IMG/VR virus record: IMGVR_UViG_3300007346_000024
Source of the DNA: an uncultured virus (IMG/VR IMGVR_UViG_3300007346_000024)
Taxonomy: Duplodnaviria > Heunggongvirae > Uroviricota > Caudoviricetes
Reading direction: 5' to 3' (one strand)
Length of the DNA stretch: 20,000 bases
The position numbers and the translations under genes were made by a program. The stretch's first letter is position 1. The number at the start of each line of letters is the position of its first letter. This document shows, piece by piece, positions 1,755 to 18,950 of the stretch. The notes beneath the pieces were generated by a model. That model searched no databases and was not told the origin of the DNA. It was given only the letters and a program-made list of their open reading frames with translations.

Positions 1755-3581
1755 TCAAGATATAGCTATCGTTTCTAGTAAATCTAGCTCGTCTTTAAGC
1801 TGCTTAATATCTTCTTTTGAGGCGTATGTAGTGTCTGAAAGAAGTAATTTTATTGTTTCTATTTCATTTTTAATTTGAATCAAGTCTTCATCATCAGAAT
1901 CCTCGTCAGTTGAAAACAAATCCATCTGAGCCTCTTCTGCCTCTTCCGTAAGAACCGCTCCTTTATCTAAAATAGACTCGTAAAGCTCTCTAATAGATTT
2001 AACTTTAAAAAACCCTTCTTCTTTAAGCCAATATTCAAGCTCGAAGAAACCATCTCTTGTAAAGAATAAATACTTAACAATATCCTCCTCTTTAGCATCG
2101 CTTAAAATATCTACAACATTAGAATCATTGCTTTGCTCATAAAAAGCCATTAAGTTCTCGTAGCTTTTAATACCCGCTCTTTCAAAATCTCTCCTTGTTT
2201 CTCTAGGAGCAGCTTTAAGGTAGTCTTTTAGCTCTTTATCGTTTGTTATGTCTTCGTTCTCAACTATGTAGTCTATATCGTTTGAAAATGTATGTACAAA
2301 ATCTTTAACATCAATCTGATAAACCGACTCGGTCACATCTCCTTCTTTGCTTGTAGCGTCTATTAAATAGTCAAGCATCTTAACTTCATTCTTTGAAAGC
2401 TTTTCTTCGTCAATCCTATCTGTTATTATCCAATTATAGATTCTAAACAGATTAGACCTGTTTCTTTCATTCATTGACTTGCTAAGGTCTGATTTCTTCC
2501 ATTGGTTAAAATAACCAACTTCACCACCTTTACGCATGATAATATCAGGGTTATTAGGGTCGTACATTCCTGAATTACCAATAGCTGATTTTATATGAGT
2601 AGGCTCAAAAACTATATAATGAAGGTCTCCATACTCAATACCTTCCATAGGCATCCCGTTTTTCCTACCCTGACCAAATTCATTGTAAGCATCCTGAATT
2701 ATACCATCAAAACCATAGTCTTCTAATCCTTCTCTGATTATCTCAGAATTAACAAGCTCACCTTCATCATTAGTAGCGTAAAGCATCGTCTCTTTTAAAG
2801 CATTAAAAAAGTCTTTTGGAGTCATTCTAGCCTCCTCATCAGTAAACTTGTTTTTCAATGTCTCAAGTTCTTCAATATTTACATCGTTATAAGAATTAGA
2901 TGCTGATACTATCTTGTCAATAATATCAATCGCGTTGCCCTCTATTTCAGGGTTGTAGTCATCATAGTATTTTTCACGCTTAAGGTCTTCTATAGCATCC
3001 TCATACTCCCAATCCTCATCGTAATCACCCCTATCTATCTCTCCCTTAGCCTCATCCTCATAATACTCCCAATCAATCTCAGCAAATATTGTTTCTTCAT
3101 CTGAAGACATGTCAAAAGGATTTTCCATTTTTATAAAAGCAGGTATAACAGCTCCGTCATGCTCTCCTTTTAGTTTTTTAGTGGCTAATCTTTTTGAAAG
3201 GGTTTCTAGAAGCTCTTCGTTATCTCCGTTTTCAATCTCTTCAGCAACAGAAATATCTATATCGAATAAATCAACAAGCTCATTAGCATCCATGTTTTCA
3301 GCTTGAGATTTTATTTGGTCTGACTTTCCTTCAATATTATTAGTAAGGTCAGCTCCTATTCCCGCATAATTAATACTCGCATCATCCGCTGAAGTTGTGA
3401 AGTAGTAACCTATACCTACAGCGTTACCGATAGTACCTCTATCAGGTTCAAAGCTATCGAAATCATGAGTCGTCCCATGATAAACAACTAAAGGCTCCCC
3501 ATCTTCATCTACAACTTTACTTTCTCCAAACCAACGCTTAAAATTAGCGTTGTCCAACATTGATTTATTCATATTATTCAT
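1755..3581 (-). CDS. ADP-ribosyltransferase-like (ART-PolyVal-type) protein with acidic insertions and an unknown C-terminal domain
   Basis: FKRWFGESKVVDEDGEPLVVYHGT, GYYFT, GFDGII, YIVFEPTHIKSAIGNSGMYDPNNPDI are characteristic of the ART domain of phage/plasmid polyvalent proteins. Confidence 0.75.
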   Translation of the reverse strand: MNNMNKSMLDNANFKRWFGESKVVDEDGEPLVVYHGTTHDFDSFEPDRGTIGNAVGIGYYFTTSADDASINYAGIGADLTNNIEGKSDQIKSQAENMDANELVDLFDIDISVAEEIENGDNEELLETLSKRLATKKLKGEHDGAVIPAFIKMENPFDMSSDEETIFAEIDWEYYEDEAKGEIDRGDYDEDWEYEDAIEDLKREKYYDDYNPEIEGNAIDIIDKIVSASNSYNDVNIEELETLKNKFTDEEARMTPKDFFNALKETMLYATNDEGELVNSEIIREGLEDYGFDGIIQDAYNEFGQGRKNGMPMEGIEYGDLHYIVFEPTHIKSAIGNSGMYDPNNPDIIMRKGGEVGYFNQWKKSDLSKSMNERNRSNLFRIYNWIITDRIDEEKLSKNEVKMLDYLIDATSKEGDVTESVYQIDVKDFVHTFSNDIDYIVENEDITNDKELKDYLKAAPRETRRDFERAGIKSYENLMAFYEQSNDSNVVDILSDAKEEDIVKYLFFTRDGFFELEYWLKEEGFFKVKSIRELYESILDKGAVLTEEAEEAQMDLFSTDEDSDDEDLIQIKNEIETIKLLLSDTTYASKEDIKQLKDELDLLETIAIS

Positions 3582-4014: not shown

Positions 4015-4673
4015 TTAGAGATTAAACCTCCTTTCGACATTCCTTTTTTACCCTCTAAAGGACAAGCTATAACAGCTTTAACTCCCGATTTTAAAGATAT
4101 AGTCCTAAACGAGTTTTTAACGTAAGAATCAGGGTTATTTTGTCTAATTCTATACGAGTCTTTGTACTCAGTAATTTTACCATATCTAAAATCATGGTCT
4201 TTAGCCCACATTCTAGATTGCTGTTTGTTAAATGCTGATTTATGGAATATAAGTGTTTGAATTTCAGTACCTACAGGACAAACAAAACCTCCGTCTTTGA
4301 AATAAACGCTTTCATTCTCAACTCTACAAGATTTCTCACCTTGCATTTCATTAAGAATTTCCGATATTGTTCCTTTTCTATCTCTTTTAGAGTCATCAAG
4401 AACAACCATTTTACAAACAATAAAATCACCTGTATTCATTGCCTCTTGATTAAGCTCACAAACATAGCTAGTATAGATTTCGTCCAAAACCTCTTTATTG
4501 GTCATGGATTTAAAATCATACTCTTTATTTGAGTTGTAAGCCTCTCGGCAAATGTAGTATTCGTCTCCCTCTATCTCTATCTTTCTTCCCGTTTCAACTA
4601 TTTCAGAAGGAATACCTCCTAAAGAATGGGGCTTCCCTATAAAAAGCCCCTTTGTATCCTTTTTTTTAGGCAT
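3978..4673 (-). CDS. two-domain phage protein, probably virion/head-associated
   Basis: N-terminal GKPHSLGGI...EIEGDEYYI motif, of a type seen in phage structural proteins. C-terminal IQTLIFHK...WAKDHDF...YRIRQ..P..FRT...GVKAVIA module. xxGG motifs at the domain boundaries. Confidence 0.6.
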   Translation of the reverse strand: MPKKKDTKGLFIGKPHSLGGIPSEIVETGRKIEIEGDEYYICREAYNSNKEYDFKSMTNKEVLDEIYTSYVCELNQEAMNTGDFIVCKMVVLDDSKRDRKGTISEILNEMQGEKSCRVENESVYFKDGGFVCPVGTEIQTLIFHKSAFNKQQSRMWAKDHDFRYGKITEYKDSYRIRQNNPDSYVKNSFRTISLKSGVKAVIACPLEGKKGMSKGGLISNWFIEELSFLNW

Positions 4674-4974: not shown

Positions 4975-5015
4975 ATTACCTTTTTTGAAACGTTTAAAAA
5001 AAATAGTTTATAAAA

Positions 5016-5045: not shown

Positions 5046-5080
5046 ATTTTCAAGTATTTAATTTTTAAAAACAATTCACT

Positions 5081-5503
5081 ATGGCTATTAAAGGAAAGAA
5101 GATTTCTGAAGAGTTAAAAAAGGAAGCAAAAAAATTCAAAATCACTTTAACTGAGGTTAAAAAGGGTGAAAGAACTTACAAGACCGAAGCTAAATTAAGA
5201 AAGGAAATTGAAAAAGCTGTAAGCAAGTCTGAAAACGTTGCTAAAGCTAAAGAGGTTGAAACACCTATTAAGAAAGAAGAAACTAAAGAGTCTAACAAAA
5301 CTTCAAAATTAGACGATTCTAAAGTTAAATCTTTTCATTCAAACGTAATGAGTACTAGCAGAAACGCTAATCAGTTAGTTAATTTTGCTAACAAAACATT
5401 CAGTGGTCTTGATGTTAAAGTGGACAAGCTAAACCCTAAGCAAGTTAGGTTTATTGTTGAAGGAACAATGATTCCTGAAGAAGGTTATTATACTACGAAG
5501 TAG
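5081..5503 (+). CDS. Lys-rich hypothetical protein (only convincing plus-strand CDS)
   Basis: 140-aa ORF with its own promoter and terminator; K/E-rich N-terminus. Confidence 0.85.
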   Translation: MAIKGKKISEELKKEAKKFKITLTEVKKGERTYKTEAKLRKEIEKAVSKSENVAKAKEVETPIKKEETKESNKTSKLDDSKVKSFHSNVMSTSRNANQLVNFANKTFSGLDVKVDKLNPKQVRFIVEGTMIPEEGYYTTK

Positions 5504-5516
5504 TAGTTCAATACAT

Positions 5517-5550
5517 AAAAAAAGAGAGCCTGATTTTTTCAGGCTTTTTT
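5517..5550. terminator. intrinsic terminator, possibly bidirectional
   Basis: AGCCTGA-ttttt-TCAGGCT stem followed by a T-tract, with an A-rich tract upstream. Confidence 0.8.
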
Positions 5551-5562
5551 GTGATTAAATTC

Positions 5563-5591
5563 TTGTTTTTAAAATATAATAACTATATTCG
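5563..5591 (+). promoter_or_regulatory. putative promoter of sRNA-1
   Basis: TTG (5563-5565), 18 nt, TATATTCG (5584-5591): one mismatch to TTG-N17-23-TAnnTTTG. No ORF downstream. Confidence 0.55.
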
Positions 5592-5698
5592 TAAGCGTTC
5601 TTACAGTTTGAAATTAATAGATACTTAGCAACGACATAGCTTGTGTGTTGAATTCTATTTTCGTTGCTATAGCCCCCTTCTTGGGGGCTTCTCATTTT
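5591..5698 (+). ncRNA. candidate trans-acting antisense sRNA-1
   Basis: Stem TAGCAACGA (5626-5634)/TCGTTGCTA (5661-5669) with 26-nt loop CATAGCTTGTGTGTTGAATTCTATTT, then hairpin AGCCCCC/GGGGGCT (5671-5689) plus TCTCATTTT. The loop is complementary to start regions of several minus-strand genes. Confidence 0.6.
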
Positions 5699-6116
5699 AA
5701 GAATATTCAAAGAATCCTAAATCAGTAATGCCACCGACTACTTTAGAACCCTTTTTTATATTTTTTGAGAAATCCACCTTCCCTTTAGGTATTTTTATCT
5801 TAGTCTCACTACCGTAGCTTATCCTAGATAGTCTTTCAGATGTGTTTATCTTCATCTCATTTCCTATAAAAGACTTTAGCTTACTCTTATTACTTAAAGA
5901 TAGTTGATTTACAGAAACCTTACCTATTGGGGAATCTATTTCTGTTTTAATAAAAACCCTTGTAGAAGGAATTCTGTAATGATTCTTAATCTTTCCGAAT
6001 ATAGGGCAATATTGATTATGAGAGTCTAGTAAATTAGATTTTATAGTAATCTGAAGGTCATTTTCACCTTCTCTTATTTTTGTAACTATACCTGATGATG
6101 GGCTTTTTATGTTCAT
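5697..6116 (-). CDS. psd: phosphatidylserine decarboxylase-like protein (divergent); true start probably ATG 6116 rather than 6194
   Basis: SPSSGIV (compare SPADG), DSHNQYCP (compare xVHxNRxP), ISYGSETKIKIP (compare FGSRVDxxxP autocleavage motif), KGSKVVGGIT (compare GxKVxAGET). A perfect promoter element at 6136-6145 lies inside the longer ORF call. Confidence 0.65.
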   Translation of the reverse strand: MNIKSPSSGIVTKIREGENDLQITIKSNLLDSHNQYCPIFGKIKNHYRIPSTRVFIKTEIDSPIGKVSVNQLSLSNKSKLKSFIGNEMKINTSERLSRISYGSETKIKIPKGKVDFSKNIKKGSKVVGGITDLGFFEYS

Positions 6117-6135
6117 TGCTTTTTTTAAATTCTGA

Positions 6136-6145
6136 TGCAAAGGTA
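6136..6145 (-). promoter_or_regulatory. Bacteroidota -7 promoter element for the psd-like gene
   Basis: Minus-strand TACCTTTGCA about 20 nt upstream of ATG 6116. Confidence 0.7.
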
Positions 6146-6189
6146 TCGCTTTTTTAAAGGAATAATTAATTAATTTTATGATTGCACTC

Positions 6190-6283
6190 GCCATAGTGTA
6201 TTTTCATTGTAGTATTATTTATTTTGGTTAATAATTCACTTACTACAAATTAGCCCATTAGCTTTACGCTTTTGGGCTTTTTT
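6190..6283 (+). ncRNA. candidate trans-acting antisense sRNA-2
   Basis: TATGATTGCA -7-like element (6177-6186); stem TTGTAGTA (6207-6214)/TACTACAA (6241-6248) with 26-nt loop; terminator AGCCCA...TGGGCT-TTTTT (6252-6283). 6213-6232 is identical to 17082-17101. Confidence 0.6.
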
Positions 6284-6294
6284 ACTTAGATTAA

Positions 6295-6355
6295 ATAGAA
6301 TGCCGCCTGAAAAACAGGCAGCAACTCTATCGTGGTAGGTATGTGCATTGCACAT
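6295..6355 (-). terminator. hairpins at the 3' end of the SSAP-like gene (terminator or structured 3' UTR)
   Basis: ATAGA-a-TGCcGCCTG-aaaaa-CAGGCaGCA-ac-TCTAT extended stem, plus ATGTGC-att-GCACAT (6341-6355). Confidence 0.5.
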
Positions 6356-6365
6356 GGACGGAAAT

Positions 6366-7274
6366 TTATTGTTGGTTTTTTCTAGGTCTACCTCTACCCC
6401 TCTTAACAGGATTTTCAGGCAAATCCTTTTCTATTACTTCAGTCTCTTCTTTATTTAGACTTGAAAACATATCTCTAGTACCTGAGTTAGTTTTTTTAGC
6501 AATATCCGTAGACTCTTCGATGTCTTTAGCTTTTTCTTCAGAATCCTTTAGGAAATTAGATAAGAATGAAGTGTCCGTAGAAGACTCAATCTTTTCTTCA
6601 CTAACCTCAACATTTGCAATATCGCTAAAAGAACTTTTCTTTTGGATTTTAGCTTTTGGAAAAAGGTCGAAAATAGCAGCGTCACCATCATCAACAGCGT
6701 TTTTAAATCCTATAAGGAGTATTACAGACGAATCATCCCAAACACCCTTGTCAGGAGAAAACTTTTTAAGCATATCTCCCTCAGAAATACCTTTTGCTTT
6801 AAAGAAGTTTATATACCCTTTCCAAGTGTCATCTTGAACATTATCATTGATAAATGATTTAATCTTGTTGATTATAGGGTTGATATAAGACGTTGGAATA
6901 GCTTTCAACACAGCATTTCTAAAAGCAATACTACAAGCAGCAGAACTTACCTTTTGAAGCTCTTCACCGCTCATAGGTAAATTATTATACTTAACAATGC
7001 TTCTTAATATTTCAATCTCAAAAGTTGAGTTTTTCTGAATGTCGTTTACAAATCCTTTTACGTAAATATACTTGCCGTCATTCTTAGTTATAGTAGCACC
7101 TGTTTTAATATTGCCCCAAGTACTAGCTATAATTTCAGCAAGACGAACACTAACTCCCGTGAAAGGTTTTCCATCACTGAAATTAACATAAAAACAGCTT
7201 ATTGCTGAATCTATATCCATTGTGGAAAGCTCTAAAATCTCCTCAAGATTTTCTTTGATGTTTCTCTTTTGCAT
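6366..7274 (-). CDS. putative single-strand annealing/recombination protein with C-terminal AT-hook; start probably ATG 7274
   Basis: SVRLAEIIASTWGNI...AACSIAFRNAVLKAIP resembles a widespread phage family found near exonucleases; acidic linker; KRGRGRPRK tail. The track start at 7298 is TTG, while ATG 7274 carries the ACACAAGCT leader. Confidence 0.55.
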   Translation of the reverse strand: MQKRNIKENLEEILELSTMDIDSAISCFYVNFSDGKPFTGVSVRLAEIIASTWGNIKTGATITKNDGKYIYVKGFVNDIQKNSTFEIEILRSIVKYNNLPMSGEELQKVSSAACSIAFRNAVLKAIPTSYINPIINKIKSFINDNVQDDTWKGYINFFKAKGISEGDMLKKFSPDKGVWDDSSVILLIGFKNAVDDGDAAIFDLFPKAKIQKKSSFSDIANVEVSEEKIESSTDTSFLSNFLKDSEEKAKDIEESTDIAKKTNSGTRDMFSSLNKEETEVIEKDLPENPVKRGRGRPRKNQQ

Positions 7275-7376
7275 AGCTTGTGTTATTGTGTTGTTCAAAT
7301 ATATACAGTCCCGATTAAAAAAACAATATTTTTTGAAAAAATTGTGTTTTTATTAAAATAGTTCGCATTAGCTTCG

Positions 7377-8754: not shown

Positions 8755-9261
8755 CTATTTATAAAAAAATTCTAAATCTAAATCCTTACACTCTTCAATA
8801 AAAGCCTTTAATTCAGAAACTCCTTTTGCGTGACCATAAACGTTACCGTATTCAATACCTCTACAATCTATACATATCTCACCGTCTTTTCTCTTTCGTA
8901 CTTTTGCTACATCTCTAAAAACCTGACCTTCTTTACTGATTTTATAGTTGACAAAACAAGGAACTGATTCACCATCGCAAATCATATCGTAAAGCCTTTT
9001 GTAATTCCTTCTATCAGAATCTTTCTTCCCTTTGCTTATTCTCTCTAACCAAACATCTTTAGAGAATCTGTTTTTAGGATTTGTAATGTCGCCTATATGT
9101 GAAAATCCAATTAATTCTTGCTCTACCCTCCATAAATCTCTTTTGATTATCTCAGAAACCCTAGAGCCTGATAGTTTAACTGTTTTTGCAAACTCTTTAA
9201 TAGTTAGGTCTGATTTAAGATAAGGTATAGTAACCTTTTCTAATTGCGTTATGTGTTGCAT
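8755..9261 (-). CDS. hypothetical protein with N-terminal sigma70-region-4-like HTH
   Basis: LTIKEFAKTVKLSGSRVSEIIKR fits an HTH pattern. Confidence 0.6.
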   Translation of the reverse strand: MQHITQLEKVTIPYLKSDLTIKEFAKTVKLSGSRVSEIIKRDLWRVEQELIGFSHIGDITNPKNRFSKDVWLERISKGKKDSDRRNYKRLYDMICDGESVPCFVNYKISKEGQVFRDVAKVRKRKDGEICIDCRGIEYGNVYGHAKGVSELKAFIEECKDLDLEFFYK

Positions 9262-9275
9262 AGCTCGTGTGTTTT

Positions 9276-9554
9276 TTACTGATATAAATCTTTGTAATTA
9301 ATCCTTACGTAGTTATGTATCAGTTTAACTAAATCTGAAATAGTCCTGTCTTCAGGATGGTCTATGATAGGCACGCATTTAGAATCAGGTAATTGAATGT
9401 TTAGCTCTTTTTCTATCTCCATAACAAATTCGACAGCATCTAGACTATCTAAGTATAAGTCTTGTAGTTTAGTCTCTAGAGATACGTTAACCTCATGAAT
9501 TGTAACTGTTTCAGCAGATTTTTTAACCGCTGAATAGATGTAATTTTCGTTCAT
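9276..9554 (-). CDS. acpP: acyl carrier protein
   Basis: DLYLDSLDAVEFVMEIEKELNIQLPD with an intact DSL phosphopantetheine-attachment serine; TISDLV C-terminal helix. Confidence 0.9.
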   Translation of the reverse strand: MNENYIYSAVKKSAETVTIHEVNVSLETKLQDLYLDSLDAVEFVMEIEKELNIQLPDSKCVPIIDHPEDRTISDLVKLIHNYVRINYKDLYQ

Positions 9555-9646
9555 AATATTTACTTTTGAAAGTTTAAATTAGTGATTAATATTTACTTTT
9601 GAAAGTTTAAATTCTTTTTTAGTATTTACTTTTAAAAGTTTAAATT
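9555..9646. repeat. 3 copies of the 26-bp box AATATTTACTTTTGAAAGTTTAAATT, 33-bp period
   Basis: Copies at 9555-9580, 9588-9613 and 9621-9646 (2 substitutions), with 7-nt variable linkers. Confidence 0.95.
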
Positions 9647-10472
9647 ATCCGTAGTAAACAGTTTGCTCTATTGGAACAGATATAGCTGCGGGACACTTCT
9701 CATTAAGAATGCAAGAACCGCATCTTTTCGGGTGTGGTAATGGCTTCAAGTTGTCTTTATGTCTATTCCATTGCTCTCTAACACTAGCTACAATAACTTT
9801 ATGCTCTTGGAACTTTACCTCATCAACAACTACTTTTATATTCTTTCTGTCTGTAGTATTGTTTGATGCAAAAACCCAAAAATAGAAATCAGGCTCATAC
9901 CCGTAAGTATCTATACCTAATAGCTTGTAATGAACTGCTTGAATCATAATCTTGTCTTTAGTAGACAAAGATTCGTCTGCCCAACCAAGTTCATCCCATT
10001 TATTGTCCAATAGACCTGAATATTTAGTATCAATGAAAATAACTCTTTCCTCTCCTTTCTTTCGAGCGATAATATCAATATCCCCTTTTATACCAAGCTC
10101 TTTGTTTTTAAGAGTAACGCCTGTGTCGATTATCTCATAATCATATTGCTCAAGCATTTTCTTGAACATATCAACATGAATCAAAGCATCTTTGTATTTT
10201 TTACCTAGCTCTCCAATAACATCTTCTTGTTTCTTGCCCTCAGCAATCTCTTTTTTAGTTAGCTTCTTAGGTTTCAATCTATCAGGAACAGGAATGTGAC
10301 CAAACTTAGTCTTCTGACCTGTACACATATACTCGAACCACTGACCTAACCTCATAGCGTCTGAAGGCGGAAACTCTATTTGATGTACAAATTGAGCCTC
10401 TATCTTTATCCCACACTCCTTACCTTTCAGATAAGACCAAAATGATTTAATAAATGATTGGCTAATTTCCAT
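9645..10472 (-). CDS. PD-(D/E)XK Cas4-like exonuclease
   Basis: GDIDII...FIDTKYS and QAVHY motifs; N-terminal Cys plus C-terminal CxxC-x5-C (possible Fe-S staple). Confidence 0.85.
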   Translation of the reverse strand: MEISQSFIKSFWSYLKGKECGIKIEAQFVHQIEFPPSDAMRLGQWFEYMCTGQKTKFGHIPVPDRLKPKKLTKKEIAEGKKQEDVIGELGKKYKDALIHVDMFKKMLEQYDYEIIDTGVTLKNKELGIKGDIDIIARKKGEERVIFIDTKYSGLLDNKWDELGWADESLSTKDKIMIQAVHYKLLGIDTYGYEPDFYFWVFASNNTTDRKNIKVVVDEVKFQEHKVIVASVREQWNRHKDNLKPLPHPKRCGSCILNEKCPAAISVPIEQTVYYG

Positions 10473-10564
10473 AATATTTACTTTTGAAAGTTTAAATTGC
10501 TTGTTAATATTTACTTTTGAAAGTTTAAATTACTTGTTAATATTTACTTTTGAAAGTTTAAATT
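10473..10564. repeat. 3 identical copies of the 26-bp box, 33-bp period
   Basis: Copies at 10473-10498, 10506-10531 and 10539-10564. Confidence 0.95.
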
Positions 10565-10565
10565 A

Positions 10566-10889
10566 CTAAAGATTATCCAAGTCAATTTCTTCTAATTGCT
10601 TATCTAGCTCACTAACCTCTTCATCTTCTTTTATCATGTAAACATCTTTGTGTTTTTCAAATCTCCAAGTAGCAAAAGCACACTCCTGAGTCCTGCTGAT
10701 TAATGGTTGGAAAACTTCAGGATTAACAAGCTCCTCCAATAAAACACCTGTTACAATGTTGTCATTGTCTAGAATCTCTCTTATAGTGTACTTAGCCCCT
10801 TGCTTGACCCAATTAGGGAAATGCATTGAAGACCAACTTTCATTCTTAGTGTCATTAACGCAAACGACTTCATCTCCTACATTAAACAT
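10566..10889 (-). CDS. hypothetical phage protein
   Basis: 107-aa ORF (MFNVGDEVVCVND...GAKYTIRE...FATWRF). Confidence 0.8.
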   Translation of the reverse strand: MFNVGDEVVCVNDTKNESWSSMHFPNWVKQGAKYTIREILDNDNIVTGVLLEELVNPEVFQPLISRTQECAFATWRFEKHKDVYMIKEDEEVSELDKQLEEIDLDNL

Positions 10890-10899
10890 AATTATTGTT

Positions 10900-11241
10900 T
10901 TAAGTTGTAAAATACTCTTCTATTATCTGAATAATCTTTTTCTCCTCGTGTTCAGTTAGTGTATAACTATCGTAATCATCATCATCGCTAGACAAGTAAA
11001 CCTCTTCATAATCTATATGAATATCTAATCTAGTAACATCAGGTTCATCGCAAGCTAAGTCTACAGGGTGTGTAATCCTATAACCTTTTTTTAAAACCTG
11101 CTCATCTACATCAAACATAACGCTAATGTATTCTGTTTTACCTGATTTTCTTTTAACCTTAAAAACGTATTCGTACTTGCTTTCTTCTCTTAAATGAGAA
11201 ATATCTTCAAATTGCTGATTATCAGTGTTTTCCTTATTCAT
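10900..11241 (-). CDS. acidic hypothetical protein
   Basis: 113-aa ORF with an ACACAAGCTT-ATG leader and an upstream TTATATTGCA promoter-like element. Confidence 0.75.
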   Translation of the reverse strand: MNKENTDNQQFEDISHLREESKYEYVFKVKRKSGKTEYISVMFDVDEQVLKKGYRITHPVDLACDEPDVTRLDIHIDYEEVYLSSDDDDYDSYTLTEHEEKKIIQIIEEYFTT

Positions 11242-11270
11242 AAGCTTGTGTCTTATGCAATATAATAAAA

Positions 11271-11322
11271 ACTTTTGAAAGTATATATTATTTTGTAATA
11301 TTTACTTTTAAAAGTTTAAATT
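11271..11322. repeat. pair of box cores, 33 bp apart
   Basis: ACTTTTGAAAGT at 11271-11282 and a full box at 11297-11322 (core starts at 11304). Confidence 0.85.
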
Positions 11323-12158
11323 AATTTACTTTCTATCAAGTCCTTCAGATTTATTTCGCTATCAATTACAGACTGAAAGAAATCGTTTAAAGCAAGTTTC
11401 CTCGCTTTTATAACTACCTTATTATCTAATTCTGAGTCTTGTTCCTTACCCATGTAAATAGACTTCCCTGACATTATATCTTTAAGCCTGTTAGATTCCG
11501 ACTCATTTTTAATAATACTGTAAGCTCTTTGGAAATATTCATTAGCTTGCTCTCTGTTTGTTTTAAGAAGCTTTAAAGACCTGAAGTATTGGTATGTAGC
11601 ATTACCTAAATCATCAACAGAACCATTTTGCTTATACTCATCAAATAGAGATAATGCGTTATTAAACCTCATTTCACTTATTTCTTTGTCTGACTTTTTA
11701 TTTTTTAACTCTTCTAGCCTAAGCTTTTCTTTATATTCTAGCTCTCTAAATTCAGATATGCTGAATCTTCTCTCATTACTATAATGATTGAGTGTCTTTG
11801 ACATTAATTGAGGAGTAAGCCTATTATAGTGATTGAATTCAAAATCAAGCTTTCCTGCTGTAGCTAATGAAAATGCGTTTTCAATCTCTTCTTTGCTAAA
11901 GTCTGAGTGATGAATCTTGATATGATTTATAAGCAAAATAATTATCTCCTTTTGAGGTGGTTCTGTAACACCTATTAACTTGCATAGGTTTAATATAAAA
12001 TTATACAGTCCTTTAAAATCTTCTGAATCAAAATCTCTTACTTTTTTAGAATGAAGATGAAGGTCTATAATCAATCCTTTACTACGATTGAAATTGGTCG
12101 AAATTAATGCTTTCGACTTCTTGCTTTGCTCTAGTGTAGCTATCTGATTTTTTTCCAT
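11316..12158 (-). CDS. hypothetical protein downstream of the initiator-like gene (possible helicase loader); start probably ATG 12158
   Basis: Helical ORF overlapping the wHTH gene; MEKNQ is preceded by an ACACGACACA leader. The function is inferred from position only. Confidence 0.5.
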   Translation of the reverse strand: MEKNQIATLEQSKKSKALISTNFNRSKGLIIDLHLHSKKVRDFDSEDFKGLYNFILNLCKLIGVTEPPQKEIIILLINHIKIHHSDFSKEEIENAFSLATAGKLDFEFNHYNRLTPQLMSKTLNHYSNERRFSISEFRELEYKEKLRLEELKNKKSDKEISEMRFNNALSLFDEYKQNGSVDDLGNATYQYFRSLKLLKTNREQANEYFQRAYSIIKNESESNRLKDIMSGKSIYMGKEQDSELDNKVVIKARKLALNDFFQSVIDSEINLKDLIESKLI

Positions 12159-12726
12159 TGTGTCGTGTCTTAATATCATTTAGAATCTTGTCAAAATTCC
12201 TGTTTATTGTAGTTAAGTTTAAATTCCCTGTTTCACCAAACCAAGTAATCTTAACACCTTCAAAAAACATTTTAAATGTGTCTTCTAGCGAGGATTCTGT
12301 AACAACAGTTCCATTCTTAACCATTGCTTTCTTTAGTTTGTTTGAGATTGTTTTTATGAATTTCTTATGATTTGGTAAAGCTACGTATTCGTACTCTTGA
12401 CTCTCATAGTAATCAATAAGGTAATCGTAAAGCCTGTCATACATTCCTTGCATCTCATCAGACTTCGAGCTATTAGCTTTCTTGTTTGATAGGAATTTAA
12501 TAGAATACATGCCTTTAGACCTACTCTCTATTGAGTCAGAAAACAAATTGAAGTGCTTATCCAAAACTCTGTATAGAGTGGTCTTACTCATCCCTAATTC
12601 GAGCTGAAGCTCTTTTTTCGAGAAAACCACCTCTCCTTTCGAGTTCGTATTCAACCATAAATGCACCCAAACATCATAAGCCTTACGTTCTTTATCATAA
12701 AGCTCTTTCAATGCTTCCTTTATCAT
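12082..12726 (-). CDS. putative replication-initiator-like wHTH protein
   Basis: YDVWVHLWL...FSKKELQLELGMSKTTLYRVLDK HTH; C-terminal NLTTINRNFDKIL resembles phage initiator tails. Confidence 0.55.
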   Translation of the reverse strand: MIKEALKELYDKERKAYDVWVHLWLNTNSKGEVVFSKKELQLELGMSKTTLYRVLDKHFNLFSDSIESRSKGMYSIKFLSNKKANSSKSDEMQGMYDRLYDYLIDYYESQEYEYVALPNHKKFIKTISNKLKKAMVKNGTVVTESSLEDTFKMFFEGVKITWFGETGNLNLTTINRNFDKILNDIKTRHNGKKSDSYTRAKQEVESINFDQFQS

Positions 12727-13178
12727 ATAATCTCTTTCTCGAAATCTAAAATATCATTCGGCTTAAGATTTAAAGCTGAACATATTCTGTAAAGCGTTTT
12801 TGTTGAGTAGTACTCTCTAGTTCCGCTAACAATTCTACTCACAGCGTCAGGAGACAAAGGTTCGTCAGGAAATTTAGCCTCAACAGCTCTGCACAAATCT
12901 CTCCTACTCATATTCCTTCTGTCTAGGATATTATAAAGCTTGGTTTTCCCTTCGTTCTTAGCAGGTCTTCCAACTCTTCTTTTCTTCTCTTCTGAAGAAT
13001 CATCCTCTTTTTTAGTAGAATCAGTATCTAAGTCTACTTCTCTTGACTCTATAACATCCTCAACCTTCTCAACTTTAGGCTCTTCTTTGTCTCCTTCTTT
13101 TATTTCCTTCACGGGGTTATTCATCCCTTGAAACCTTGACCTTAAATCAGTTTTTTCTTTAGTGTTGAATTCTGACAT
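12723..13178 (-). CDS. Cro/C1-type HTH regulator with AT-hook-like motif
   Basis: KLYNILDRRNMSRRDLCR...VSRIVSG...TLYRICSALNLKPNDIL, preceded by KKRRVGRPAK. Confidence 0.85.
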   Translation of the reverse strand: MSEFNTKEKTDLRSRFQGMNNPVKEIKEGDKEEPKVEKVEDVIESREVDLDTDSTKKEDDSSEEKKRRVGRPAKNEGKTKLYNILDRRNMSRRDLCRAVEAKFPDEPLSPDAVSRIVSGTREYYSTKTLYRICSALNLKPNDILDFEKEII

Positions 13179-13269
13179 AATATTTACTTTTGAAAGTTTA
13201 AATTCCTTGTAATATTTACTTTTGAAAGTTTAAATTATTAAATAATATTTACTTTTAAAAGTTTAAATT
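13179..13269. repeat. 3 copies of the 26-bp box, 32/33-bp period
   Basis: Copies at 13179-13204, 13211-13236 and 13244-13269. Confidence 0.95.
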
Positions 13270-13421
13270 CGCTTAAAGTGTAAACTCCTTGCTATCGTGA
13301 AAACCACTTTAAACTTCCTACTTACTCATCTAGGCTCGGCAATCCCGTCTGTATATTTTGATGCTTACCTTCACCTCCCTCGAATTAGCTCATGAGGCGG
13401 CTACTCATCAGTTTAATTTTA

Positions 13422-13641: not shown

Positions 13642-13827
13642 CTACTCTTCTATATATTCCCAAGAATCTACAAATCTAGCAAAGTGAGGTTCACCTCTTT
13701 CTCCTCCTACTAAAAACATTTCTTCACTCATAATATAAGTGCCTTGATAGATTCCATCTTCGTAGTTCCATCTTACTTTTCTACCATCTTCAGGTAGACT
13801 TGATTGGTCTAATAAAATATCCCTCAT
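13642..13827 (-). CDS. small hypothetical protein
   Basis: 61-aa ORF with a TCAACACACA-ATG leader. Confidence 0.7.
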   Translation of the reverse strand: MRDILLDQSSLPEDGRKVRWNYEDGIYQGTYIMSEEMFLVGGERGEPHFARFVDSWEYIEE

Positions 13828-13844
13828 TGTGTGTTGATTTATAA

Positions 13845-14792
13845 TTAATCTGTTTCTTTACTTAAGTCTAATTCATCATTGATGATTTTGTTTGCCATTT
13901 TAGCAGCTCTAAAGTTTCTTGAGTAGTTTATCTTAGCTCCGCTTTTCTTAGCGTAATGAGGATAAGCAAACTCCCTTTTTATGTCTCCGTAGTCATTAAC
14001 TACAAAACCTTTCTCATGAAACATTATTTGATTGATTCTCTTGAACTTGCTATTGTAACCATTCTTAATAAATACACCCATAGCTTTCTGAACATTCTCA
14101 GGTGTGTTTACCATATAGATACCATCTACCCAATAGAATATAAAGTCTTTACCTAACTCTGATATAACTTCATGCATTACATCAGAAACCCTTTTACATA
14201 TAGTAAACCAAAGGTTTTCTAGCAAAGGTTCTCTATCTATGATAGTCTCTATTAATTTATCACCTTGATATTTGTAGTTATAAGTCTTTCTAGCTAAAGA
14301 GCCTAAAGCTGTTAATCTAGCTTTTTTGGAAATATTCCCTTTACTACCTCTTTGATATAGCTTATCGTCAACAACACCTAACTGATAAGCGGTCTCCCAA
14401 TAAGCTTGGTCAATATCAACCTCACATACATTTTTGAATAACTGACCCACAGGTACTCTTGAAACCTTTACGTAGTGAACATCTTCAGAAAAAACTTGAT
14501 GCTCTTGAAATCTAGGTTCTAAATAAACCTCACTTTTAATTACATGTCGTCTAACATCTTTGATAAACCTAAGCTCTTCAATATTGTACTCCGACTTCTT
14601 AAAAGTCTTAGCTTTAAACATTTTGGAAATCAACTCATAATTACCGTTGACTACTTTGATAGTGTATTCTTCTCCCAATGACATAAGTACCTTTTGTTTT
14701 TGGTAAAATCGTTTGAATTGCTTTGAATTCTGCTCACGCAATTCCTGAATAGTAGCTTGTGTTTGTTGGTCTGTGTTGTTGACTTCATTCAT
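13845..14792 (-). CDS. minimal/divergent family-B DNA polymerase-like protein
   Basis: Motif A-like EVDIDQAYW, motif B-like KKARLTALGSLA and motif C-like FYWVDGIY in the expected order; only 315 aa; no exonuclease motifs seen. Confidence 0.55.
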   Translation of the reverse strand: MNEVNNTDQQTQATIQELREQNSKQFKRFYQKQKVLMSLGEEYTIKVVNGNYELISKMFKAKTFKKSEYNIEELRFIKDVRRHVIKSEVYLEPRFQEHQVFSEDVHYVKVSRVPVGQLFKNVCEVDIDQAYWETAYQLGVVDDKLYQRGSKGNISKKARLTALGSLARKTYNYKYQGDKLIETIIDREPLLENLWFTICKRVSDVMHEVISELGKDFIFYWVDGIYMVNTPENVQKAMGVFIKNGYNSKFKRINQIMFHEKGFVVNDYGDIKREFAYPHYAKKSGAKINYSRNFRAAKMANKIINDELDLSKETD

Positions 14793-14846
14793 ACTTTCAA
14801 AAGTATATATTCTGTTTTAAAATTCAAAATATTTACTTTTAAAAGT
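14793..14846. repeat. two box cores upstream of the PolB-like gene
   Basis: ACTTTCAAAAGT at 14793-14804 (inverted core, abutting the ATG) and AATATTT-ACTTTTAAAAGT at 14828-14846. Confidence 0.8.
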
Positions 14847-14887
14847 ATATATTATTTTTACTATAGACTTGTTTTCAATGACTTGCT

Positions 14888-16599: not shown

Positions 16600-17082
16600 C
16601 TATTCCTCTTCAGATTCCTCAGACTCATCATCTAACAACTCAGCACCTTGCTCAGCTATAGTTTTATAGTCATAAACTTCTAAAACCTTAGTTTTTGAAA
16701 TAGAAACCAATTCCCAATCAGAAATAGAATCTCTTTGAAACTCTTTTAATGATTTGATGGCTGACTCTACATCAGGAGCTTGAATATAGTAGTTAAGAAC
16801 TTGCTTCTTTTCTTTTTCTGAAGATTCGTCAAAAGTAACAGTTTCAACACCCGCCTTGAACCAATAATCAGAATCGTTCTCATCAAAAATACAAGCATCC
16901 ATTGTTACACCTGAACAACCTACTACTTGGAAGTCATCTACCATTGTCATTGCCATTCTAGTAATGTTAGACTCTGCTTCTGTAAATGACTGAGCTTGTA
17001 CCATATACTCTTCATTTACTTTCTTTACTTTACCTGAAGATTCATCTTGCTTCAAGTACTTAATCTTAGTTTTGAAATACAT
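16600..17082 (-). CDS. DUF4494-like protein (Bacteroidota family)
   Basis: FKTKIKY...GKVKKVNEEYMVQAQSFTEAE...WFKA...DESSEKEKK...ISKTKVLEVY. Confidence 0.85.
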   Translation of the reverse strand: MYFKTKIKYLKQDESSGKVKKVNEEYMVQAQSFTEAESNITRMAMTMVDDFQVVGCSGVTMDACIFDENDSDYWFKAGVETVTFDESSEKEKKQVLNYYIQAPDVESAIKSLKEFQRDSISDWELVSISKTKVLEVYDYKTIAEQGAELLDDESEESEEE

Positions 17083-17103
17083 ATTATTTATTTTGGTTAA
17101 TTA

Positions 17104-17343
17104 CTAATTTACTTCGTTTCCTACAACTTCTAATAAAGCAGAGTCTATTGTGAAAATTCTTTTCCCGAATACACATACAGCCATAAGCTTATATTCGTGG
17201 TGCTTATACTTCTCACCTTCTGCATCTACACCTTCTGTTTCTTTTGTGGTTTGACTCATGAAAGATTCAATATACCCTACTCCTTCAGGGTCTCCTTCTT
17301 GCCAATACTCTTCTGATAATCTTACTTTTGTTTTTCCTTGCAT
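17104..17343 (-). CDS. hypothetical protein
   Basis: 79-aa ORF. Confidence 0.7.
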   Translation of the reverse strand: MQGKTKVRLSEEYWQEGDPEGVGYIESFMSQTTKETEGVDAEGEKYKHHEYKLMAVCVFGKRIFTIDSALLEVVGNEVN

Positions 17344-17361
17344 AATGACTAATTAAAATGT

Positions 17362-17475
17362 TTAGTAAAAAAAATACAGCATTAGAAACACAACTGTAAC
17401 AGTTATCAAGATATATGCGAAGAAAAAGATTGTGGTTAGAATCCTAAACCTAGACTTTTTGATTTTTGTTTTCAT
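17362..17475 (-). CDS. 37-aa single-pass membrane protein (not in the ORF track)
   Basis: MKTKIKKSRFRILTTIFFFAYILITVTVVFLMLYFFY*; CAACACACAAGC leader motif upstream. Confidence 0.6.
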   Translation of the reverse strand: MKTKIKKSRFRILTTIFFFAYILITVTVVFLMLYFFY

Positions 17476-17625
17476 TGATTAATCGCTTGTGTGTTGTTGA
17501 AGCTAATCGCCTATGCTAAATTAATGTTTTATATTTTATTTGCAAATTACTGTAATGATTTTTTCTTAAAAAACCTATGAGTATTTTATGTTTTTACTCA
17601 TATTTGTTGTAGTTTTTATTCCCTT

Positions 17626-18461: not shown

Positions 18462-18737
18462 TTACTTATTTTTTTTCAACAATACTATTTCATACCCTAA
18501 AAAGTCGGCAAATTCCATCAATACGGGTAACTTAGGACTTACACTATACTTCTTGTCTAAACCGCTGATATACCTAGCGTGTGAGGTCTTGTCTATTTTA
18601 GTTTTATCGTGGAAATCACTCTTTTTTATACCTCTGTTAATTAAAACTTTTGAAAGTATATAATATAACTCTTTTGCACTAGAAAAACCCCTTATTTCAC
18701 CACTATTTTCTAGACCTGTTAATTTATTTTCTTTCAT
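18462..18737 (-). CDS. XRE-like HTH regulator
   Basis: RGIKKSDFHDKTKIDKTSHARY...SPKLPVLMEFADFLGYEIVL. Confidence 0.8.
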   Translation of the reverse strand: MKENKLTGLENSGEIRGFSSAKELYYILSKVLINRGIKKSDFHDKTKIDKTSHARYISGLDKKYSVSPKLPVLMEFADFLGYEIVLLKKNK

Positions 18738-18782
18738 AAACTTGCTTTGTTTGTTTATTTTTCTTAGTTAATACCTATTTAT

Positions 18783-18950
18783 ACTTTTAAAAGTTTAAAT
18801 TCAGATTTTTTTTTCGACCAATTTTACAAAAATTAATATATACTTCTAAAGATATAAATACGAATATATACTCTTGAAGATATAAATTAAAACACTCATT
18901 TCCAGCTAGTTACAATAATATATACTTTTAAAAATATTGGTCTCAAAAGT
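18783..18950. promoter_or_regulatory. cluster of exact and degenerate box cores upstream of the HTH gene
   Basis: ACTTTTAAAAGTTTAAATT (18783), ACTTCTAAAGAT (18842), ACTCTTGAAGAT (18870), ACTTTTAAAAAT (18924), TCTCAAAAGTATATA (about 18941); one more core lies inside the gene at 18646-18657. Confidence 0.6.

Follow-up and report, generated by a model that had tools for sequence, protein, structure and literature searches.

Known small RNAs of similar logic

The c4 RNA of the phages P1 and P7 has loops complementary to a phage mRNA at its ribosome-binding region, and translation of that mRNA is blocked, according to a 2025 review of phage small RNAs (PMC12197685). In Bacteroides thetaiotaomicron the small RNA (sRNA) GibS has a promoter with a -7 TAnnTTTG box and an intrinsic terminator, and a conserved single-stranded seed lies across the start codons of its targets, which are repressed (PMC7366714). 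Pairing at the start region thus represses genes in Bacteroidota. Here we describe two hairpin units, unit 1 and unit 2, on the plus strand of a 20,000-nucleotide (nt) stretch of DNA from an uncultured freshwater phage (IMG/VR record IMGVR_UViG_3300007346_000024; the whole stretch is called the window). Each unit consists of a perfect stem with a large loop (SL1 and SL2) and an adjacent terminator-like hairpin (T1 and T2). Judged from sequence comparison, it is rather probable that the two units are trans-acting antisense sRNAs.

The likeness to c4 lies in a phage-made small RNA with a loop-borne complement to the start region of the phage's own mRNA. That RNA, however, serves a single operon (ant), from whose own transcript it is cut, whereas here several genes on the opposite strand, 1.6-12 kb away, have a common leader. 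There is no likeness in sequence or structure, and the c4 family of Rfam was not listed at the units in the Rfam scans. The units were not assigned to that family: there is no covariance-model match, and the candidate targets lie on the opposite strand kilobases off, not downstream in the same operon. A further difference is the host phylum, Bacteroidota, whose mRNAs to our knowledge lack Shine-Dalgarno sites.

The 3' untranslated region (UTR)-derived sRNAs of enterobacteria, such as CpxQ and SdhX, arise by processing or from an internal promoter, and they depend on Hfq and RNase E in Proteobacteria. Like them, sRNA1 would use the terminator of an upstream protein gene; unlike them, it is a phage-borne element with no known chaperone. 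With GibS the units have in common the type of -7 promoter box (TAnnTTTG), the intrinsic terminator and the conserved seed over start codons. GibS, however, is encoded by the host, its seed is an open 5' end and its targets are metabolic genes, whereas here the element is phage-borne, the loop is closed, the sequence is unrelated and the target set is defined by a leader. Lambda OOP RNA and P22 sar RNA are likewise small phage antisense RNAs acting on the phage's own genes, but they are cis-antisense and overlap a single target, while the RNAs proposed here would act in trans through short seeds (PMC12197685). No known Rfam family and no paper that we found appears to describe these RNAs, and the closest logic seems to be that of c4. 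Next to nothing is known to us of how Bacteroidota phages control their genes post-transcriptionally. In Rfam scans, run on the window at E up to 10 and on eight relatives at E up to 1, no family was listed at the units. A literature search on phage sRNAs of Bacteroidota or Flavobacterium found nothing relevant, the motif returning only primers and unrelated sequences, and the 2025 review makes no mention of Bacteroidota or Flavobacterium (PMC12197685).

Conservation and structure of unit 1

The original prediction, made from the window alone, placed two non-coding units on either side of a psd-like gene, each with a stem, a 26-nt loop and an adjacent G+C hairpin, and all of these parts are present. 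Unit 1 has the following features.

5626-5669, plus strand: SL1, a 9-base pair (bp) stem with a 26-nt loop; the invariant 15-nt core, CATAGCTTGTGTGTT, is at 5635-5649
5671-5697, plus strand: T1, G+C hairpin AGCCCCC..GGGGGCT (5671-5689) with a T-rich tail; predicted 3' end of sRNA1
5602-5610, plus strand: weak -7-like box, TACAGTTTG, with a 3-nt spacer instead of a 2-nt one

The stem is formed by 5626-5634 (TAGCAACGA) and 5661-5669 (TCGTTGCTA), which make 9 perfect bp around the loop at 5635-5660. Such stems alone mean little, because the window holds 34 perfect stems of at least 8 bp (loops of 3-60 nt), among which eight loop lengths occur twice. The significance that had been attached to a loop of exactly 26 nt is therefore lost, and in related sequences the SL1 loop is 25-32 nt long. 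It is the related sequences, in which the stem and terminator of unit 1 covary, that make them significant.

Relatives were collected using as anchor a protein of 302 amino acids (aa) encoded next to the units (6366-7274, minus strand); 124 metagenome loci were returned and 80 were kept. About 15 loci, chiefly from marine samples, have the same gene order as the window, with protein identities of 33-72%. In these syntenic relatives a non-coding gap of 320-440 nt separates the 302-aa gene from a convergent homologue of the basic-protein gene, and units 1 and 2 lie side by side in this gap. Unit 1 is found at the syntenic position in 9 distinct relatives, whose proteins are just 35-70% identical to those of the window. 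The core CATAGCTTGTGTGTT is exact in all 9 and begins 17-45 nt past the stop codon of the basic-protein gene.

The stems of SL1 were compared in nine sequences, namely the window and 8 of the 9 relatives with unit 1, and seven different stem sequences were found. An alignment by MAFFT failed to align the stems; the alignment used was fitted to a model made from the window's unit and is biased towards that structure, but the stems can also be read by eye in the relatives' sequences. In the fitted alignment, 92.2% of the cells are paired, compared with 74.3% in shuffles (none of 500 as high), and 12 of the 16 pairs change on both sides (reached in 1 of 500 shuffles). When the partner was slid by 1-3 columns as a control, 39-55% of the cells were paired; a cross-pairing control was uninformative. 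The T1 helix covaries as well, with 100% of its cells paired, and a T-rich tail follows it in all nine sequences. On this comparison, unit 1 is a real, conserved, structured RNA element. An invariant 15-mer is held in a loop closed by covarying stems, as a single-stranded seed of a base-pairing sRNA would be, and both units end in G+C hairpins with plus-strand T-rich tails (T1 and T2), as intrinsic terminators do. SL1 and SL2 were rejected as plain intrinsic terminators, being separate from T1 and T2, and SL1 has the conserved loop core besides.

Model R1 (E up to 1) finds SL1 itself as the sole match in the window. With the family model R3, the known SL1 members score 63-76 bits, and diverged copies of SL1 are detected in two further loci (L022 and L023) as well as a cut-off copy at the end of L016. 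Above 20 bits, R3 finds a single SL1 in the window and most relatives, with one extra weak match of 21-23 bits each in L004 and L019. At gene starts it gives matches of 18-20 bits only, and in the window one of 17.8 bits (17472-17537). Among relatives of the 302-aa protein, 20 prophage-like ones from bacterial genomes (13 labelled Bacteroidota) lack SL1, as do other distant loci, the one match in 463 kb scoring 18.7 bits. The 15-mer itself occurs in 54 IMG/VR contigs, none of which shares a protein or the hairpin context.

The SL1 loop and a leader at gene starts

The 15-nt core, which in the minus-strand sense reads AACACACAAGCTATG, is the exact antisense of a leader sequence, AACACACAAGC(T)ATG. 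The leader is present at one to four gene starts per phage, behind Bacteroidota-type -7 boxes and always in gene sense, and the 302-aa gene of every relative in the clade carries it. When the 12 loci of the clade were searched with AACACACAAG (up to one mismatch), 47 sense matches and no antisense match were obtained; the 47 include SL1 itself, one per locus except in L016, whose contig stops before it. All matches apart from SL1 are at gene starts, usually 5-16 nt past an exact TAnnTTTG and 0-8 nt before the ATG. The main sigma factor of Bacteroidota has TAnnTTTG as its -7 box (PMC7366714). Given its position behind this box, the leader motif is probably the very 5' end of its mRNAs. The antisense relation of the unit 1 loop to the phage's own minus-strand start regions, proposed from the window, was recovered in all 9 distinct relatives that carry unit 1.

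Four stretches of the window, each of 11-12 nt, match loop 1 on the same strand (7272-7283, 13162-13173, 13827-13837 and 17485-17496), and none does on the other strand. This complementarity is beyond chance: simulated windows had a mean of 0.19 such matches, and none of 300 reached four. The original prediction that the loops match sequence at or next to minus-strand ATG codons holds for most of the matches; the one at 13162-13173 lies inside a helix-turn-helix (HTH) gene. The candidate targets are listed below.

7272-7303, minus strand: candidate target 1, 302-aa gene; box TATATTTG (7303-7296), leader, then ACACAAGCTATG (7283-7272); the gene callers' start is at 7274
9259-9273, minus strand: candidate target 2, 168-aa gene; AACACACGAGCTATG, 14 of 15 positions complementary to the loop; lowest duplex energy in the window
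11239-11254, minus strand: candidate target 3, 113-aa gene; AAGACACAAGCTTATG
13827-13837, minus strand: candidate target 4, 61-aa gene; TCAACACACA followed by ATG
17475-17496, minus strand: candidate target 5, hydrophobic 37-aa open reading frame (ORF); CAACACACAAGC, 8 nt, then ATG

When duplex energies with the loop were ranked, three of the 34 start regions in the window fell in the lowest 1% of the background, and the global minimum is itself a start region, that of the 168-aa gene (-23.6 kcal/mol), with -20.7 for the 37-aa ORF and -20.6 for the 302-aa gene. The 37-aa ORF (MKTKIKKSRFRILTTIFFF...), which had not been listed, occupies 17362-17475 on the minus strand behind its copy of the leader.

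In the branch formed by L020 and L022, the loop has gained GU repeats (CATAGTCTGTGTGTGTGTT) and reads CATAGTCTG(T/C)GTGTGTGTT, and two gene starts of L020 read AAACACACACACAATG. This is a hint that the CA repeats of the leader and the GU repeats of the loop increase together. The supposed guide-like exchange of loops on a fixed scaffold is not seen; in unit 1 the opposite holds, with a fixed loop and a variable stem.

Unit 2

The second unit lies on the other side of the psd-like gene and has the following features.

6171-6178, plus strand: -7-like box of sRNA2, TAATTTTA, agreeing with TAnnTTTG at 7 of 8 positions
6185-6199, plus strand: small 5' hairpin (CACT..AGTG), whose 3' arm is the conserved box 2, GCCATAGTGT
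6207-6248, plus strand: SL2, an 8-bp stem with a 26-nt loop (6215-6240)
6252-6284, plus strand: T2, terminator hairpin AGCCCA..TGGGCT (6252-6278) with six T; predicted 3' end of sRNA2
17082-17101, minus strand: candidate target of the SL2 loop, DUF4494 gene; 20 nt, positions -19 to +1

The stem pairs 6207-6214 (TTGTAGTA) with 6241-6248 (TACTACAA) over 8 bp. Unit 2 is very probably a real conserved RNA element. Its model recovered three of eight relatives at E up to 0.05, and sRNA2 was compared by hand. The two units do not behave as one modular family, as had been supposed, for the unit 1 model misses unit 2 and the reverse search also fails.

Box 2 is complementary to the start region of the basic-protein gene (5076-5085), which reads ACACTATGGC. 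In the window this duplex has an energy of -15.6 kcal/mol, below every minus-strand background window. Among the relatives the values are -12.4 to -19.7 kcal/mol, in the top 0.3-1.7% of the background in all six that have the whole gene. The motif is short, and pairing of box 2 with this start region is suggested only.

The loop of SL2 reads TTGGTTAATAA in the window and four relatives and is different in the other four. It matches 17082-17101 exactly over 20 nt, while shuffles gave 0.06 matches at up to three mismatches.

At the same junction, L025 (6815-6935, minus strand) and L024 (7375-7495, minus strand) contain an sRNA-like unit of another build, in which an exact -7 box and a hairpin are combined with a single-stranded GAGTGTGTTAC or GAATGTGTTAC and with a terminator that has a T-run.

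Strand and transcription

In 15 of 18 folding comparisons (both units in nine sequences) the plus strand gives the more stable structure. Plus-strand G-U pairs extend the SL1 stem in four sequences and minus-strand ones in a single sequence, and the SL2 stems of L011 and L017 contain two and three U-G pairs, where the opposite strand would have A-C mismatches. In the relatives, the stop codon of the basic-protein gene leads straight to unit 1, without an extra hairpin that the window has in between, and T1 is the gene's only terminator. The TAnnTTTG-like elements of the original prediction are present before both units in the window, in the imperfect forms TACAGTTTG and TAATTTTA. Before SL1, an exact TAnnTTTG is found only in L004 and L011, with a match at 7 of 8 positions in L013; 19-26 nt before box 2, it is exact in seven of nine sequences. 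In the most distant syntenic branch (L024/L025), a -7 box, hairpin, GAGTGTGTTAC and terminator follow each other in the plus sense at the same junction. On balance, the units read best as plus-strand RNAs, by their G-U pairs and folding energies as well as their T-runs and promoter boxes.

In four metatranscriptome runs, contigs end sharply at 4989-4991 and begin at 5069/5070, in all four runs. These positions are likely to be transcript ends that flank a divergent promoter region, and because sharp ends common to all four runs fit such a promoter, the libraries appear to hold RNA and not DNA. One run has adapter sequence directly after 4990. Unit 1 is spanned by contigs, which have no strand information, in three of the four runs. 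Unit 2 (6198-6291) has no contig and psd almost none in the four runs, which carries no weight either way.

Proposed mechanism and alternative explanations

From the observed anatomy, conservation, covariation, complementarity and strand bias, we infer the transcription of the two RNAs, their pairing and its effect. The convergent gap between the basic-protein gene (plus strand) and the 302-aa gene (minus strand) would encode two small plus-strand RNAs. sRNA1, made up of SL1 and T1 and about 70 nt long, would be produced as the 3' end of the mRNA for the basic protein, and some relatives would make it from a -7 box of its own as well. Its loop of 25-32 nt would expose the invariant 15 nt that are the exact complement of AACACACAAGC(U)AUG, predicted to be the 5' end and start region of several phage mRNAs from the opposite strand. 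sRNA2, of about 100 nt, would have its own TAnnTTTG box, the 5' hairpin with box 2, SL2 and T2, and would carry further anti-start sequences. Pairing of the loop with the leader and start codon would block the small ribosomal subunit and perhaps trigger decay, so that one RNA would dampen an entire group of phage genes in hosts whose phylum does without Shine-Dalgarno pairing; repression is considered a good deal likelier than activation. The fuller proposal, of master antisense RNAs in which a private 5' leader marks a set of phage mRNAs and one sRNA loop reads that mark, start codon included, is put forward tentatively, with slightly more doubt than belief.

If it is true, a single transcript tied to the expression of the basic protein could retime how all of these mRNAs are translated in a host that lacks Shine-Dalgarno sites, and RNA switching of translation would be shown for such a phylum. 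A conserved RNA with a defined seed and a short, defined target list makes this directly testable, and the invariant pair of leader and anti-leader could be a compact orthogonal switch for Bacteroidota engineering.

Several observations weigh against the antisense proposal. No strand-specific transcript, 5' end or 3' end is seen, the contigs being strandless. Neither -7 box of the window is perfect, and before SL1 such a box is missing in most relatives. Three of the 18 folding comparisons favour the minus strand, including the window's own SL1. At the DNA level, the leader plus ATG is directly repeated in the SL1 loop, oriented as the minus-strand genes are, and the loop could be a relic or mimic of a gene start. 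The 15-mer is invariant in the main clade, so that a joint change of loop and target cannot show there, and the L020/L022 case is one branch with imperfect pairing, in which the 302-aa gene of L022 itself lacks the leader. The 12-nt match in the HTH gene (13162-13173) is not kept in the relatives. For SL2, the loop target is seen in the window only and the loops vary among relatives, while a similarity of 28 in 32 positions to 17082-17113 extends into the stem, as in a plain duplication.

The alternative that survives best, though we regard it as unlikely, reads the units on the minus strand: the loops would be start-region mimics or gene-start relics on read-through RNA from the 302-aa or psd gene, and would serve as decoys for a start-region-binding factor or ribosomes, or be inert. 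Both conserved boxes do resemble gene starts (AACACACAAGCTATG and ACACTATGGC), the long version of the psd ORF begins at the box 2 ATG in the window, motifs resembling operators or promoters are found upstream, in the minus sense, in L009, L011 and L013, and the three minus-favouring folds agree with it. The ORFs that follow these ATG codons, however, have just 2-17 codons and are not conserved, there is no minus-sense -7 box before SL1, and the RNA would have to read through the strong minus-strand terminator T3 and then T2 and T1. The plus-strand bias of G-U pairs, energies, T-runs and -7 boxes also goes against it.

A little less likely still is that the hairpins serve the basic-protein mRNA itself, by binding a protein (at an autoregulatory site, for instance) or by stabilising its 3' end, with the antisense likeness to the leader being of other origin. 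The gene concerned and a neighbouring feature are as follows.

5081-5503, plus strand: basic-protein gene, an ORF of 140 aa, Lys-rich; the only plus-strand gene near the units, followed by unit 1 in all relatives
5527-5550, plus strand: extra terminator hairpin with a T-run just 3' of the basic-protein gene; window only

SL1 always lies in the 3' UTR of this same gene, beside its terminator, and the product is highly basic; its homologues have the same location in the relatives. The protein has no match in Pfam or PHROG. Its C-terminal domain was modelled at a predicted local distance difference test (pLDDT) value of about 90, and a fold search gave a best match of Z 4.1, with none at Z 5 and none by Foldseek at E 0.001, so that no RNA-binding match comes from the fold. 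As an mRNA element, moreover, the unit would leave unexplained the exact complementarity, across the start codon too, between the invariant loop and a leader that several genes share and that is found in gene sense only, and also why sRNA2 has its own promoter. The help from the basic protein that had been envisaged for the sRNAs is likewise unsupported: the sole link is that unit 1 lies in or just past its 3' UTR in every relative, and the fold is uninformative.

A DNA-level explanation, which we hold to be improbable, is that the units bound an insertion hot spot, where copies of the leader guide the recombination that brings in accessory genes such as psd. A recombination role has been proposed for repeats of the promoter-stem-loop (PeSL) cassettes of T4-type phages. 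It is in keeping with this explanation that the gene below lies exactly between the units and in this phage only, that L024 appears to have an extra stretch at the same junction relative to L025, and that the loops are direct repeats of gene-start sequence.

5697-6194, minus strand: psd-like gene (PF02666, 27.4 bits), between units 1 and 2

Covarying stems and strand-biased G-U pairs, on the other hand, indicate RNA, SL1 is not a dispersed cassette (a single copy above 20 bits by R3 in the window and most relatives), and the elements are retained in relatives without the insertion. Dispersed cassettes of the PeSL type, with many copies flanking variable genes, were rejected, since R1 finds SL1 alone in the window. 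The psd-like gene is absent from all syntenic relatives. Because relatives without it carry both units adjacent in one gap, the gene is, on this comparison, an insertion between the two units and outside the sRNA system. Its true start is probably the ATG at 6116-6114, since the alignment with its one close homologue begins only at residue 28. A TACCTTTG box of its own lies at 6145-6138, and the gene has the look of an accessory gene that is transcribed independently. The convergent junction may be a hot spot for such genes. At this junction, L024 (6757-7400) appears to have about 600 extra bases, ATG-initial and between common flanks, relative to L025 (6757-6860).

Chance inverted repeats beside ordinary terminators, which the 34 perfect stems with their often coinciding loop lengths might suggest, can be dismissed, as syntenic conservation and covariation in 9 relatives and the match statistics refute them for unit 1 at least.

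Other features of the window

The window has a G+C content of 32%. One of its proteins is identical to a protein on a 93,865-base contig, and the window reads as part of a phage genome of about 94 kb. Nearly all of its genes are on the minus strand, and their products include DUF4494, DUF3127, MazG, HNH/NinG, an HTH regulator, and ACP-like and ART-PolyVal proteins. The ART-PolyVal protein (608 aa; 1755-3581, minus strand) has an N-terminal ART-PolyVal ADP-ribosyltransferase domain (E 3.5e-20). In a phage collection, blastn found no close relative and tblastn one distant Microcystis phage. IMG/VR searches gave no relatives with three window proteins, no match with the stem pattern and three single matches with a 33-nt repeat of the window. 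A scan for tRNA and tmRNA genes found none in the window; the relative L005 has a tRNA gene at 4324-4416 on the plus strand (Rfam tRNA, 51.9 bits).

The locus of the two units is bounded by the end of the 302-aa gene.

6301-6365, minus strand: 3' UTR and terminator of the 302-aa gene; conserved

This 3' UTR contains a conserved CTATTGGCGGTAGGTA between two hairpins. In L004, L009 and L013 the 3' arm of SL2 has its complement in 11-12 nt of this 3' UTR.

The 33-nt repeats (TAATATTTACTTTTGAAAGTTTAAATT) are in tandem, two or three per array, and adjoin the ATG of minus-strand genes, with arrays at 9552-9650, 10470-10568, 11263-11324, 13176-13275, 14785-14855, 18638-18666 and 18777-18802. One array adjoins the HTH regulator gene (12723-13178). 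The core of the repeat is a near-palindrome, ACTTTnnAAAGT, at a spacing of three helical turns, and the repeats look like an operator array. The motif is also found in relatives, and in L009, L011 and L013 it lies between T2 and the terminator of the 302-aa gene.

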